From: a virus
UHGV virus genome: UHGV-0075529
Reading direction: 5' to 3' (one strand)
DNA: 16,505 bases
Part shown: one piece after another, positions 4,140-11,358 of the stretch
How positions within the stretch are numbered: position 1 is the stretch's first letter
Layout of the letters: each line of letters starts with the position of its first letter
Notes under the pieces: model-generated
The model's input: only the letters and a program-made list of their open reading frames with translations
The model's database searches: none
What the model was told of the DNA's origin: nothing
Position numbers and translations under genes: made by a program

Positions 4140-4363
4140 GACTCCACTCCGTAGCGCCCATTCAGGCGACCAATTTCGCTGTTAAATTTGATAAGGCTGA
4201 TGCCTAGAGGCTCGACGATTTGGTGATATTTTCGGAGGATAGGCGGGACGACTTTATTCCAGTTCGGCTTGGGCTTTGTGCGCATCGCCGCTTTCAGTTC
4301 GTCACTGCATCGCCGGGCCTGAGAGTGCAAAGCATTCTCCTGTTCGGTGGTCATTCGCTTCAT
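4136..4363 (-). CDS. Hypothetical phage protein, 75 aa
   Basis: ORF with ATGA overlaps at both ends (Dam stop and 203-aa start). Confidence 0.55.
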   Translation of the reverse strand: MKRMTTEQENALHSQARRCSDELKAAMRTKPKPNWNKVVPPILRKYHQIVEPLGISLIKFNSEIGRLNGRYGVES

Positions 4364-4911
4364 GCTGCCTCCCGCCGGGCGATAAGTTTCGCTCCGAAAG
4401 TCATTAATACGTCGCGCTCCACGAAATTGGACTCGCAGTGTGTCCGAGGGAATGGCCGCCAGATGAGCAACATACTCCCTTTATTATTTCCCGATACCGG
4501 CTTACCGGTGACCGGGTTGATGAATTCCAGCCGCCCGGCAGTGATGAATCGAACCTCGCTCGCCGTCTCGATAGCCTCACGGAACCAGCCGACGGAAGTA
4601 TCAGCCGGAACCAGCATGACGGTGCCGATCTGATTCTTGCTCTCCGCTGCGGCTTTCTTCACGAATGGCGTGATGTCGCTGTAAGGTGGGTTGAGCCACG
4701 CATAGCCTGGAATGGTGAGGTAATCGGCCCACGGAGTTTCCAGCGTATTCTGCTCTGCGGTGATGAACTTGCGGCAGAGCGCGTTATGCGGCGCTGCTGC
4801 GGCGTCCAGTTGAAAGCAGAACTCTGCATCCAGCGCGGCAAATAGAGCCGGTGGTGTGCGCCATAAATCACGCTGATCTGCTGGCGTGTTACTTCCGGTG
4901 TAATCGGTCAT
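4360..4911 (-). CDS. dam: Phage-type DNA N6-adenine methyltransferase (Dam family)
   Basis: 183 aa with the catalytic NPPY motif (AWLNPPYSD) and overall phage Dam architecture. Confidence 0.8.
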   Translation of the reverse strand: MTDYTGSNTPADQRDLWRTPPALFAALDAEFCFQLDAAAAPHNALCRKFITAEQNTLETPWADYLTIPGYAWLNPPYSDITPFVKKAAAESKNQIGTVMLVPADTSVGWFREAIETASEVRFITAGRLEFINPVTGKPVSGNNKGSMLLIWRPFPRTHCESNFVERDVLMTFGAKLIARREAA

Positions 4912-6985: not shown

Positions 6986-7957
6986 TCAGTAATGAATTTT
7001 CGCGCAGGGGATTAGGTCGTCTTTAAGTGCGGTGAGCACTTCGATAGCCTGTTCGCGGGTTAAGCTGGTGTGGCTGGTGAGCGCGTTAACGATGTTGGTG
7101 CCGACCGTCTTGCGGTGCTTCACGTCAGCTTCGCGCTTTGCCTGTTCATCGGCGAGGCGCTTCTCTTCGGCCAGGCGAGCATCTTCGGCCTGTTTTGCCT
7201 TGTGGCGCTCAGCTTCCACTGCCGCAGCTTTTTCTCTTTCCGCCCGGGCTTCTGCTTCCTTCTTCTCGCGTGTCGCACGCTGTTCCGCTTCAATGCGCTG
7301 GCGTTCCGCCAGCTCTGCACGCGCTTTCTCTTCAGCTTCACGGCGCGCTGCGGCTTCAATTTCTGCTTTGTGCTTCGCTTCGGCATCGCGTCGGGCTTGC
7401 TCTGCCGCTTCACTCTTAATGCGCTCTTCATGCTCACGTTGAGCCTGTTCCGCCAGGCGGCGCTGCTCTTCGCGGTCCCGGTCAAAATCCTTATTCATCA
7501 GCAGAGCCATTTCGTGGTCCGCTTCGAACTGAATAGCCCGCTGCAAATCGATGCTCTCGTTCATCACCAGTGCTTCGGCGTGCATCGCGTTCATGGCTTC
7601 TTCAGCCTTAATACGTTCCTGCTCGGCTTCCCATTCGGTAAGTGGGCGCCGTACTTCATCCTTCAGCGCGTCCAGCCTCTCACGCACAATGCGGCGGCTT
7701 TCGTCGATCTGCTTCGGCAGGGCTTTAAGCTCGGCAACCAGATCCTTGCCGGCGTTGTCGATATAGGTTTTGGAGCGGGCAACCTTATGCGCCATGGATG
7801 CGATCGCGTCGCGGCCTTTGCGGGTCGACACATCCGGTACCAGGCTGCGAGCTTCTTTCTCGATCGCCTCAATAATAGGGTCGAGCTGCTCTTTGGTGGT
7901 GAATACCGCCATTGCGTTCTGTTTCTCAATGACGACTAAATCCGTTACTTCGCTCAT
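6986..7957 (-). CDS. Low-complexity coiled-coil protein, 323 aa (Ala/Glu/Arg/Lys-rich centre)
   Basis: Uninterrupted ORF with strong SD (AGGAGA); central ~150 aa is a charged repeat (EAEQRATREKKEAEARAEREKAAAVEAERHKAKQ...) between non-repetitive termini. Confidence 0.7.
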   Translation of the reverse strand: MSEVTDLVVIEKQNAMAVFTTKEQLDPIIEAIEKEARSLVPDVSTRKGRDAIASMAHKVARSKTYIDNAGKDLVAELKALPKQIDESRRIVRERLDALKDEVRRPLTEWEAEQERIKAEEAMNAMHAEALVMNESIDLQRAIQFEADHEMALLMNKDFDRDREEQRRLAEQAQREHEERIKSEAAEQARRDAEAKHKAEIEAAARREAEEKARAELAERQRIEAEQRATREKKEAEARAEREKAAAVEAERHKAKQAEDARLAEEKRLADEQAKREADVKHRKTVGTNIVNALTSHTSLTREQAIEVLTALKDDLIPCAKIHY

Positions 7958-8321: not shown

Positions 8322-8557
8322 GATTCCTCCCGAGCGCGGAGCATTGCGTCAGCTATCTGGTACGCTTCGGTTGCCGTGCGGTCATCGCTACACAACCAGT
8401 CAGGATTGGCTAATCGACCCTGCATAGCCTTGGCCGCGAAGTAATCGCGTAGGGTCATGCCGCCAGAGCTGACTTCGAAACCATGTAAGTGACCAACTTC
8501 GTCGCGCTCCACGATAGAATCACACGGGAAAGCGCGCCCTCCAGTTTTGTTGCTCAT
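8318..8557 (-). CDS. Hypothetical phage protein, 79 aa
   Basis: ORF with SD AAGAGGG upstream of ATG 8557; first gene after the leftward terminator. Confidence 0.6.
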   Translation of the reverse strand: MSNKTGGRAFPCDSIVERDEVGHLHGFEVSSGGMTLRDYFAAKAMQGRLANPDWLCSDDRTATEAYQIADAMLRAREES

Positions 8558-8691
8558 AAACCCTCTTGGCCTTATCGCGGCGAACGGAACGGTTAATACA
8601 AGACTTCAACGCATTTATTCAGTGTTTCAATGGGCGGTGGATGGCCGCCGGTTGTCATAACTTGAGCCACTCGTAAATGACCCCAGGTATG

Positions 8692-8714
8692 AAAAAAGCC
8701 GCTGGTTAGGCGGC
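8692..8714 (-). terminator. Intrinsic terminator (minus strand), tL1-like position downstream of the pL-proximal genes
   Basis: Stem GCCGC (8698-8702) / GCGGC (8710-8714), loop TGGTTAG, followed on the minus strand by TTTTTT (plus A-run 8692-8697). Confidence 0.65.
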
Positions 8715-8873
8715 TCTGTTAATCCATTCTCGTGCGTTGCGTCGGCACATCCATGCCAGCTTTACCCAAAGGTCATGAAACCCATCACCACGCACTGATG
8801 CTCGACATTTTTTGCGGTACTGCCTGTAATCTTCACTGCACTCGGCAGCATATTTATCAGTTGTGCTTTGCAT
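8706..8873 (-). CDS. Small hypothetical Cys-containing protein, 55 aa (not in the ORF track)
   Basis: Hand translation: MQSTTDKYAAECSEDYRQYRKKCRASVRGDGFHDLWVKLAWMCRRNAREWINRAA; SD GAGGGT upstream; its stop lies in the loop of the 8692-8714 terminator. Confidence 0.4.
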   Translation of the reverse strand: MQSTTDKYAAECSEDYRQYRKKCRASVRGDGFHDLWVKLAWMCRRNAREWINRAA

Positions 8874-8930
8874 GCTCTTACCCTCTGTCGTTACCCGCTG
8901 ATGCGGGAGAAATTCTTTATCTATCAGCTG

Positions 8931-9143
8931 CTACAACTCATCACGAATCTGTGAGAGTGTGCTGATCGCCTGGTAATGACCGCGACGCTGCTCTTCTGTT
9001 TTGAACGCGCGCATATCGTCTTTTATCGATGCGATTGCCTTATTCAGAACTTCCACTTGCGCTTCTTTAATCGCCTGTTTGCGTGGCTTCTGACGCTTCT
9101 TAGGAAGGTCTCTTAAACACGCCGGAATGTATGTCTGAGTCAT
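8931..9143 (-). CDS. Basic 70-aa protein, first gene downstream of pL (N position; antiterminator identity unproven)
   Basis: ORF with SD AAGAGGA; Lys/Arg-rich stretch LPKKRQKPRKQAIKEAQ near the N-terminus; position matches lambda N. Confidence 0.5.
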   Translation of the reverse strand: MTQTYIPACLRDLPKKRQKPRKQAIKEAQVEVLNKAIASIKDDMRAFKTEEQRRGHYQAISTLSQIRDEL

Positions 9144-9348
9144 AAAAAATCCTCTTGTGATTCAGCACAGCCCACTCAGCTTCGAATGGACTGGAATAAA
9201 TCTTTTTTTCGCTTTGCCATAATTGCCGCTCTCCCTGAGCCCGCCTATGGTCCGACGCATGGTTTACTGTCGCGCCGTTCGACTGACCGAATCTCCACTT
9301 CGCCGCTGGCTAACTTCGCTCAGCTGTCGATGTTTCGTTTCGATGGGG

Positions 9349-9430
9349 TAAATTTAGCGTGATGCTAAATTATGCGCAATAGCAAAATGCTAAATTGTTG
9401 AATGGTTTTATTTAGCGTATTGATTAATAA
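9349..9430 (-). promoter_or_regulatory. OL operator triplet with pL promoter
   Basis: 17-bp sites TTTAGC-N5-GCTAAA at 9353-9369 (perfect), 9378-9394 and 9411-9427 (imperfect); on the minus strand -35 TTGCGC (9379-9374), 17-bp spacer, -10 TAAATT (9356-9351). Confidence 0.6.
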
Positions 9431-9466
9431 GCGATTAAAAATTTACAGCGAAGGAATTCGGGACGT

Positions 9467-9490
9467 AAAAAAGCCCGCGCGATGGCGGGC
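9467..9490 (-). terminator. Intrinsic terminator downstream of cI (minus strand)
   Basis: Stem GCCCGC (9473-9478) / GCGGGC (9485-9490), loop GCGATG, followed on the minus strand by TTTTTT (plus A-run 9467-9472). Confidence 0.6.
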
Positions 9491-9510
9491 TTGAGGGGTT
9501 TTGCGTGAGG

Positions 9511-10188
9511 TTATGGGATGTTTAGTATTTTGGCATCAACCACAACGCCGATGATTTTGCAGTTTCCATTAATTTCTAGCATTGGATATGCGGGGTTAAG
9601 GGGCTTTAGGAAGCGTCTGCCGGCATCGATTACAAGCTTCTTAAAGGTCGCTTCGTTATCGCCTTCTAGCTTCGCGACAACCAGCTTTCCGTTGCGCGGC
9701 TCGACTTCAGGATCAACAAGTATCGCTGCTCCCTCGGGTATGCTCAGTCCAGCCGGGGAGGTCATAGAATCCCCTTTAACGTCCAGCCAGAATGAATCTT
9801 CTGAGCAGTCAACAGTCGTGTCATACCAGCGATCTATCGCTCTTCGGTGATAAGGTTCTACAGCTTCCATCCATTGCCCCGCGCTTACCCAGCTGATTAC
9901 AGGATAACTTCCTTTTGTCTCGTTCAGTCCTCGAAATGCAACGTTCGAAGGTTCTTCACTGGCGTGTAAAACATCCATCCAGCCAAAAGGCAGATCAAGC
10001 GCAGTTTCAATTTTGCGAGCCATCTTATCGCCGATATTGCGATGAGGGTTTGGTCCCAGTAGCTGGCTAAGCGCAGCCGGACTTGTCTCGATGAGCTCGG
10101 CAAACTGCGCTTTGGTCATTCCAGACTCGTGCTGACGCTTCTCGTACAGCGCTTCCAGGTTGGCTTTTCTGATTTCTTTATTTTCCAT
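9511..10188 (-). CDS. cI: cI-type prophage repressor (N-terminal HTH, C-terminal S24 LexA-like autopeptidase)
   Basis: Start taken at ATG 10188 (MENKEIRKANLEA...); C-terminal domain has the catalytic Ser in GDSM, a downstream Lys, and an Ala-Gly candidate cleavage site (SWVSAGQW). The ORF track runs to 10305 across the operators. Confidence 0.88.
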   Translation of the reverse strand: MENKEIRKANLEALYEKRQHESGMTKAQFAELIETSPAALSQLLGPNPHRNIGDKMARKIETALDLPFGWMDVLHASEEPSNVAFRGLNETKGSYPVISWVSAGQWMEAVEPYHRRAIDRWYDTTVDCSEDSFWLDVKGDSMTSPAGLSIPEGAAILVDPEVEPRNGKLVVAKLEGDNEATFKKLVIDAGRRFLKPLNPAYPMLEINGNCKIIGVVVDAKILNIP

Positions 10189-10304
10189 ACCTGCATTGTT
10201 ACTGCTTTTAGCAAAATGATAAATATGCAAATTGCTAAATGATGCTTGCGTAGTATTTAGCATAACGCTAAACTCCAAATCAAACGACTCACCCGGAGAC
10301 ACCA
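10189..10304. promoter_or_regulatory. OR operator triplet with divergent PRM/PR promoters
   Basis: 17-bp sites at 10207-10223 (TTTAGC-AAAAT-GATAAA), 10223-10239 (weak) and 10256-10272 (perfect TTTAGC-ATAAC-GCTAAA); PR candidate -35 TTGCGT (10246-10251), 17-bp spacer, -10 TAAACT (10269-10274). Confidence 0.7.
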
Positions 10305-10538
10305 ATGAGCACTGAACTACACCGCTGGCGCAAGGCCGCCACTACCGACGAATGGGCGCAGCTCGCAAAGTTGGCTAACACGACGCCAGGTTACCTGGAC
10401 CAGATCGCCTACGGAAATCGCCGGGCATCTCCAGAAATGGCATCTGCTATCGAGAAAGGCACGAAGAATTTTCACCGCCAGGCTCCGGTCCTAAAAGAAA
10501 GCCTGGTATTCGCATCGCCGCGTGATACTGCGGCCTAA
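10305..10538 (+). CDS. cro: Cro-like / YdaS-family HTH DNA-binding protein
   Basis: 77-aa ORF divergent from cI across the operator region; SD GGAGA 7 nt upstream; HTH-like segment EWAQLAKLANTTPGYLDQIAYGNR. Confidence 0.65.
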   Translation: MSTELHRWRKAATTDEWAQLAKLANTTPGYLDQIAYGNRRASPEMASAIEKGTKNFHRQAPVLKESLVFASPRDTAA

Positions 10539-10555
10539 CCACGAAAGGGAAAGCA

Positions 10556-11122
10556 ATGCATTCACTTGCGTATCAACAGAGTACCGGACTTGAACAACGT
10601 CCGTTGATTTCGATTTATCAAAGTGTTCCGCGTAATAACCGTAAGCTAACTCGAATACGGGAGGCAGTTAAGGCCTGGCAAAAAGCTACGCCGGGCCAGT
10701 CTCAGGTTCACATTTCTCAGCTGGTTGCGAAAGAGTGGCTGGCGCGCGGCGGGAAGGGGTTGTTACTGGCAGGTTCTGAACACAACACGAAGCAGAACTT
10801 CTTCCGGATGATTAACGATCCGGGCCCGAAGAACGACAAGGGGTTGATGCTACTGATCCCCGTCATTATCGACGTGATGGCGCGGGATAACGAGAAAGTG
10901 GCGAGAGAGTTCGGTCTGGTCGCAAAGACTGAGGCCGAACTGATAGCCGAGGCCATGAAAGAGTGCACTGAAGCGCATCAGGCGAAGTTACTTGGTCAGC
11001 CGATACAACGCCTTGAGAAAGAGGTGAGAGAAGCTGCTGAAGCACTTCTGCGCTTTCTGCCCACTGAATCAATCGCCGCGGTGGTGACAAGTCTGGCCGC
11101 TATGGCGCCGGGAGTTATGTGA
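10556..11122 (+). CDS. YdaT-like protein in the CII position
   Basis: 188 aa immediately after the cro-like gene; segment KEWLARGGKGLLLAGSEHNTKQNFFRMIN resembles Rac YdaT as recalled. Confidence 0.55.
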   Translation: MHSLAYQQSTGLEQRPLISIYQSVPRNNRKLTRIREAVKAWQKATPGQSQVHISQLVAKEWLARGGKGLLLAGSEHNTKQNFFRMINDPGPKNDKGLMLLIPVIIDVMARDNEKVAREFGLVAKTEAELIAEAMKECTEAHQAKLLGQPIQRLEKEVREAAEALLRFLPTESIAAVVTSLAAMAPGVM

Positions 11123-11211
11123 TGGGAAGTATCAAAAACGGCGAAAGCCAGTCTGCTCGAACAGAACTGGCCTTCAGATGCAAATCGTGTGCACTCATTG
11201 CAGGAGGAATA

Positions 11212-11358
11212 ATGGCAAAAAATCCACGCTATTACCATACCGCTGTACATAAAAACATAACCCGCGACCGCTTCATCCGCTCGGTTAACCCGATTGTGGC
11301 AGAGAAGATGCGCGCCATCCTGGAAGAACTGAAACGTAAGGAGAGTGGCCGTGGGTAA
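11212..11358 (+). CDS. Small hypothetical protein, 48 aa (or 78 aa from ATG 11122)
   Basis: Strong SD AGGAGG 5-6 nt upstream of ATG 11212 (MAKNPRYYHTAVHKNITRDRF...); the ORF track extends to 11119 overlapping the upstream stop. Confidence 0.45.
   Translation: MAKNPRYYHTAVHKNITRDRFIRSVNPIVAEKMRAILEELKRKESGRG

Follow-up and report, generated by a model that had tools for sequence, protein, structure and literature searches.

The window, that is, the whole 16,505-nt stretch of UHGV virus genome UHGV-0075529 that was analysed, carries a cI-type repressor gene that is followed on its own strand by an intrinsic terminator, a short spacer, three operator-like sites and a candidate leftward promoter (pL). 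On the other side of the repressor gene, a second group of three sites and a candidate rightward promoter (pR) lie ahead of a gene in the cro position.

9351-9379, minus strand: candidate pL promoter, with -35 TTGCGC (9379-9374), a 17-bp spacer and -10 TAAATT (9356-9351)
9353-9369: operator OL1, a perfect TTTAGCGTGATGCTAAA with 0 mismatches, covering the pL spacer and the -10 hexamer
9378-9394: operator OL2, 2 mismatches, overlapping the pL -35 hexamer
9411-9427: operator OL3 (TTTAGCGTATTGATTAA), 2 mismatches
9428-9466: spacer of 39 bp between the terminator T-run and OL3, with no conserved sequence, ORF or structure
9467-9492, minus strand: intrinsic terminator of the cI transcripts (stem 9492-9471, T-run 9472-9467)
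9511-10188, minus strand: cI-type repressor gene, 225 aa, LexA/S24 family, with an N-terminal HTH
10207-10223: operator OR3, 1 mismatch, between cI and cro
10223-10239: operator OR2, 3 mismatches, between cI and cro
10246-10274, plus strand: candidate pR promoter, with TTGCGT (10246-10251), a 17-bp spacer and TAAACT (10269-10274)
10256-10272: operator OR1, 0 mismatches, between cI and cro
10305-10538, plus strand: gene for an HTH protein in the cro position, 77 aa
10556-11122, plus strand: gene for a cII-like protein of the YdaT family

Pfam analysis of the cI product identified a Peptidase_S24 domain (1.9e-29) and an HTH_3 domain, and the C-terminal half of the gene showed 77% nucleotide identity to P22 c2. 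In the record of Klebsiella phage KO-TP1, and likewise by PGAP, the repressor is annotated as a protein of 250 aa with a start within the OR operators (9511-10263 in the window, 3210-3962 in L002 and 1803-2555 in L056). The ATG at 10188, which gives 225 aa, was kept in 8/8 sequences of an OR-side alignment and has an AGG upstream; it is more likely the true cI start. The stop codon of cI is 83 bp from OL3, and 367 bp separate cI from the first gene of the pL operon.

The operators were located by scanning the pattern TTTAGCNNNNNGCTAAA over the whole window with up to 3 mismatches and by comparing the result with 200 shuffles. The window gave 15 matches versus 6.25 ± 2.4 in the shuffles, none of which reached 15 (0/200), and the best matches formed two clusters of three sites each with one 17-bp consensus, TTTAGC-N5-GCTAAA. 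The scan returned exactly the coordinates at which the first-pass annotation had placed the three OL sites; the distance of 25-60 bp from the terminator that had been assigned to them applies to OL3 (39 bp) but not to OL2 (72 bp) or OL1 (97 bp). The sites are unevenly spaced: OR2 and OR3 share one base pair, with centers 16 bp apart, and the distances are 33 bp for OR1-OR2, 33 bp for OL2-OL3 and 25 bp for OL1-OL2.

Conservation was followed in an alignment of eight sequences that spanned the interval between the cI stop and the pL start. It comprised the window, phage KO-TP1 (91% nucleotide identity to the window) and the six closest of 45 loci obtained in a search of genome assemblies with the repressor, namely those of Enterobacter vonholyi, E. 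soli, an Enterobacter MAG, Citrobacter, Atlantibacter and Phytobacter (81-98% at the amino acid level). In the seven relatives, from five genera, the operators and their distances agree with those of the window. The half-sites of OL1 were invariant around six different central pentamers, and those of OL2 were invariant around variable central bases. At OL3, AATCAA....GCTAAAT was invariant in 8/8 sequences between variable flanking bases, and OR1-3 together with the pR -35 hexamer were invariant in 8/8 sequences as well. Half-site conservation with drift of the flanks, as expected of operators of the same immunity, was thus observed at both OL and OR.

It could be argued that the leftward sites do not form a functional OL triplet, with 9411-9427 being a chance half-site or the sites serving only Cro or another regulator. 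The right half of OL3 is indeed degenerate (GATTAA versus GCTAAA), and lone operator matches with 2 mismatches occur elsewhere in the window (5352). However, chance does not account well for two OL3 halves that stay fixed in eight sequences while their flanks vary, the OL2-OL3 distance equals that of OR1-OR2, and a weak third operator is typical of lambdoid OL and OR regions. This reading is therefore considered unlikely, and the repressor is predicted from sequence to bind at both clusters.

The two promoters share one design, with O1 lying in the spacer and over the -10 hexamer. A generic sigma-70 consensus scan of positions 8500-10700 called no promoter, and the assignment of pL and pR was therefore based on conservation; TTGC and TAAATT of pL were invariant in the eight-sequence alignment. 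As the proposed pL matches the consensus at only 7/12 positions, its assignment rests on this conservation and on analogy with pR and with phage HK639, in which the last base of the annotated 'putative pL' corresponds to 9351. Statements on HK639 are drawn here from its GenBank annotation; the phage is reportedly described in King et al. 2011 (J Bacteriol 193:5784). Transcription from pL would start at A 9344, the first base of the motif CCATCGAAAC, which is also present in the leaders of HK639, CobraSix, phiEt88, S9-5 and HK225, just downstream of differing promoters.

The first-pass annotation had proposed a comparison of the interval downstream of cI across related prophages. In this comparison, all carriers of the same immunity that were examined lacked cargo. 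The compact cI-OL layout was found in 7/7 same-immunity relatives, and 27/27 complete E. coli genomes with the immunity region gave ungapped single-piece matches of equal lengths at 98-99.9% identity. In addition, 37 loci with cI relatives were surveyed mechanically by seeking, downstream of cI, words common to the OR region of the same locus. An OR-like word cluster was located in 21 of the 37 loci, and in 20 of these 21 it was 49-181 bp past the cI stop; the lone exception was Biostraticola with 1.58 kb. A perfect-stem terminator at a distance of at most 150 nt from the cI stop was present in 22/37 loci. Emptiness is the default for this cI repressor family and is not peculiar to the window prophage, and for the TTTAGC-N5-GCTAAA immunity cassette the empty cI-to-pL interval is the ancestral state.

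Cargo was found between cI and pL in phages that combine the left arm of the window with other immunity cassettes. HK639 has four ORFs and a terminator there (1.9 kb), HK225 has five ORFs (1.7 kb) and E. coli EC21Z-063 has a single 158-aa ORF. The accessory hotspot that had been assumed at this position therefore exists in these three, and only in such left-arm relatives with other immunity cassettes. Searches of their cargo ORFs with PADLOC and Pfam revealed no defence families, only an HTH protein with weak matches, so the cargo cannot be called defensive.

Homology of the window to HK639 and HK225 ends at 9352, on the border of the pL -10 hexamer, approximately 8 bp upstream of the proposed start. 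Because it stops there, the cargo is part of the immunity cassette, and whether the slot is filled therefore depends on the cassette that a phage carries. The left recombination joint of the immunity cassette lies at the proposed pL start site. Since phages with the same left arm carry cargo between cI and OL, the compact layout might alternatively reflect a recent loss of rex-like cargo from the window. This is very improbable: the cassettes of the cargo-bearing phages are unrelated to that of the window and the cargo travels with them, the compact layout and its spacing are shared by every carrier of the window cassette (with cI identity as low as 81%, in five genera and in the 27 E. coli genomes), and 20/21 of the more distant cI relatives are compact as well.

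Two mosaic joints were observed in the window, at 9352 and at about 9209. The joint at 9352 falls on the pL -10 hexamer and forms the left edge of the immunity cassette. The segment 9352-9209, which covers the leader from the pL start to the end of the put core described below, is 95% identical to HK639, and the segment 9208-8900 is 97.5% identical to HK225. The HK225 leader has the first ~55 nt in common with the window and contains another, longer segment in place of put.

Downstream of cI, 18 nt past its stop codon, a G+C-rich hairpin is followed by a U-run, as expected for a Rho-independent terminator. The stem consists of 8 pairs, 6 of them G-C, and encloses the loop CATCGC; six T follow. 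The predicted fold (-14.6 kcal/mol, z = -3.6) was more stable than those of all shuffled sequences (0/200 as stable), and in the eight sequences the 3' stem arm and the T-run were invariant, the loop being variable. The element is the same as the terminator placed at 9467-9490 earlier, and its features suggest efficient termination of cI transcripts.

The spacer between this terminator and OL3 varies in sequence, is 30-50 bp long among the relatives, contains indels of lengths not divisible by three, and is predicted to be unstructured as RNA (-1.2 kcal/mol, z = +0.42). In an Rfam scan of the whole window (E ≤ 1), the only match was a sub-threshold one to Trp_leader at 9465-9544; it was rejected, as its 23.3 bits (gathering score 41) are due to the terminator hairpin. 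Invariant operators, promoter and terminator next to a drifting spacer look like the footprint of functional elements with nothing functional between them. That the interval encodes a small protein or a small RNA is hardly credible: the only ORF of at least 20 aa within 9370-9510 is a plus-strand frame of 30 aa (9402-9494), which has an ATG start and similar ORFs in the closest relatives, but it runs across OL3 and the terminator, the positions of its two ends and its length vary even in close relatives, it is missing in three loci (Citrobacter, Atlantibacter and Phytobacter), and the frame-breaking indels, the unstructured RNA and the sub-threshold Rfam match of the spacer argue against a product.

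Cargo of the rexAB type, defined as ORFs cotranscribed with cI upstream of OL, was not found in the 83-bp interval from the cI stop to OL3; the spacer is neither conserved nor structured, and such cargo is therefore absent there. Two claims of the first-pass annotation are hereby borne out, namely that no gene lies between cI and pL, where there is only the nonconserved 30-codon ORF on the opposite strand, and that defence cargo is absent at the rex position. The region 9340-10310 is a textbook example of a lambdoid immunity region, and the interval considered here is very probably its left boundary, canonical and compact in form, without an accessory or defence gene between cI and pL. As the rex position holds no defence cargo, searches for accessory genes should turn elsewhere.

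PADLOC analysis of ten window ORFs gave nothing beyond an orphan methyltransferase, a DNA methyltransferase of 183 aa in the leftward operon (4360-4911, minus strand; orphan MTase at 6e-30, phrog_111). Between kil and gamL, a 323-aa protein (6986-7957, minus strand) belongs to phrog_1376 of unknown function; E. coli EC21Z-063 has it as well, and PADLOC gave no match to it.

The proposed pL transcript contains three further elements.

9213-9286, minus strand: core of a putL-type antiterminator RNA with two stems, beginning at about +59/60 from the proposed pL start
8931-9143, minus strand: first gene of the pL operon, 70 aa, phrog_5305 (unknown function) at 2.2e-35
8693-8716, minus strand: tL-like intrinsic terminator of the pL operon, hairpin and U-run, -12.8 kcal/mol, z = -3.9

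The sequence 9286-9213 (minus strand) aligns with HK022 putL, and its core is 96.7% identical to an HK639 feature annotated as 'putL-like antiterminator RNA'. The put residues are numbered as in HK022, the numbering having been rebuilt from residues named in PMC9378689, with put n at window position 9287 minus n. Seven putL sequences (the window and six others) have 51 invariant columns, which include the -10-like element AACCAT (9264-9259) that is conserved in all putL (PMC9378689). When the published pairing, including the 3-7/15-19 duplex, was applied to eight put sequences, 92% of the cells paired, compared with 23-53% in controls in which the partners were slid. Nine pairs were changed on both sides, and 0/500 shuffles reached the observed score. 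A covariance model built from the eight put sequences scored the window element at 89.4 bits (E = 3e-18). Compared with shuffles, the fold was not significantly more stable (z = -1.55 for the whole leader and -0.93 for the core alone); put is therefore supported by homology and covariation and not by folding energy.

In the window and in HK639, the lower part of stem II lacks the bulged U68 of HK022 and is paired in a shifted register. This counts against the put reading, as deletion of U68 abolishes antitermination in HK022 (PMC9378689). In HK022, the polymerase that transcribes put becomes terminator-resistant without a phage protein, and read-through of the put type depends on the zinc-binding domain of the RNA polymerase β' subunit (PMC9378689). 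By analogy, the window element is expected to be active in the same manner. It lies in the early leader, after pL and ahead of terminators, and no N gene accompanies it; among the first five leftward pL genes, no N-family homologue was found. The term 'cI-to-N interval' used in the first-pass annotation is accordingly a misnomer, as the pL leader carries a putL-type RNA instead. Early antitermination is most likely RNA-mediated and of the putL type.

A second put copy (putR) was sought in the window with the covariance model and filters off, but none was detected, the next-best score being 11 bits. This includes 6 kb of the right operon, and the HK639 stretch examined was likewise without putR. 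The same model detected putR in HK022, phiEt88 and UPF_BP1 at 54-55 bits. As HK639 also lacks it in that stretch, putR marks the HK022 subtype only.

A conserved two-hairpin element was noticed at 11139-11205 (plus strand), within the 89 nt that separate the cII-like gene from an ORF48-like gene with its true start at 11212. It occupies the position of the annotated 'M3-like RNA' of HK639 and is a positional and structural analogue of it; BLAST of the HK639 'M3-like RNA' against the window gave no sequence match. Among 6 sequences, hairpin 1 retains its pairing despite both-side changes at 5 pairs. Read on the other strand, GCCGTTTTT comes after the hairpin, an arrangement that resembles an oop-type terminator. 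The element could be the right-operon counterpart of put.

The product of the 70-aa gene gave no significant Pfam match, and the gene is 97.5% identical at the nucleotide level to HK225 gp40. E. coli FDAARGOS_1277 (L056 812-1366) has the same immunity region and put, but in place of the 70-aa gene it carries one of opposite orientation that encodes an 'ECs_2282 family putative zinc-binding protein'. Owing to this exchange in E. coli prophages, a variable slot is located just downstream of put and not between cI and pL.

The terminator at 8693-8716 lies approximately 630 nt downstream of pL, overlaps the end of a 55-aa ORF (8706-8873) and is homologous to the region of the annotated HK639 terminators. 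It was missed in the terminator scan, probably because an extension of the stem consumes the T-run, and was confirmed by folding. It is a plausible target of put-mediated read-through.

The following scheme may be proposed. In the lysogen, cI would be transcribed leftward from the OR region, and its transcripts would stop at 9467-9472. With OL2 over the pL -35 hexamer and OL1 over the spacer and the -10 hexamer, repressor bound to both would occlude pL and shut it off, with OL3 serving as a weak auxiliary site. Upon induction, pL transcripts would start at approximately 9344, and put would fold from about +59. The put-modified polymerases would then pass the downstream terminators without a phage protein, put standing in for N/nut.

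In this scheme the cI terminator would insulate pL and its leader from polymerases started at upstream cI promoters, which probably matters because the leader carries a putL-type RNA. As put acts in cis on any polymerase transcribing it, the terminator would keep polymerases from the cI promoters non-resistant in the lysogen. A terminator located directly upstream of OL/pL might then be an obligatory insulator in put-type lambdoid prophages, a generalization that we advance only tentatively and consider rather doubtful. If it is true, read-through from the cI promoter, which is constitutively active in a lysogen, would yield terminator-resistant polymerases and lead to expression of kil and the recombination genes, and a weakened terminator would be more harmful here than in N-dependent phages. 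It would also explain why a terminator is found upstream of OL with or without cargo, as in the window, CobraSix, phiEt88 and UPF_BP1, and after the cargo in HK639. A canonical terminator directly upstream of OL/pL was present in 5/7 put phages, including HK639 with its post-cargo terminator. Put phages do not all possess a strong insulating terminator, since in HK022 and S9-5 cI is followed by no more than a weak AT-rich hairpin. Relatives that carry the cassette without put have the terminator too; an insulating function is therefore plausible but not put-specific.

Beyond annotation, the significance of these findings is small. The immunity map of the prophage is now fixed with respect to operators, pL, pR, terminator and the true cI start. 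The compact arrangement noticed at first is correct but ordinary, as it is common in the cI family and matches those of P22 and HK022. The only novelty is an immunity specificity with the operator TTTAGC-N5-GCTAAA in a known framework.

In phage lambda, a tripartite OL overlaps pL, the S24 repressor gene is transcribed toward OL, and a terminator precedes OL. The window has its OL with the candidate pL, its S24 repressor gene and its terminator in the same order. Lambda differs in carrying rexAB (~1.3 kb) between cI and OL, where the window has 83 bp without a rex-like ORF, and in using N/nut, whereas the window has put. The 1.9 kb of HK639 between cI and pL, with four ORFs and a terminator of their own, likewise contrasts with the empty interval of the window.

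The immC region of P22 (c2 - OL/pL - gene 24) also encodes a repressor of the LexA/S24 type, and its c2 is the nearest classical relative of the window cI. In P22, the gene-free interval from c2 to gene 24 measures 353 bp, close to the 367 bp from cI to the first pL gene in the window, and in both cases tripartite symmetric operators are located on both sides of the repressor gene. The operator sequence and the N-terminal domain of the repressor differ, and so does, accordingly, the immunity specificity. The first pL gene of P22 encodes the N-like antiterminator gp24, whereas the window has no N-like protein and carries the put RNA in its leader.

HK022 differs from the window in the placement of put, which starts at +1 and is followed by nun, whereas in the window it starts at about +59 and is followed by the 70-aa gene; HK022, like phiEt88 and UPF_BP1, also has putR, which the window lacks. 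The two nevertheless share the placement of cI next to pL, with about 350 bp between cI and nun in HK022, and the putL of HK022 and the window element have in common the two-stem architecture and the invariant nucleotides, including AACCAT.
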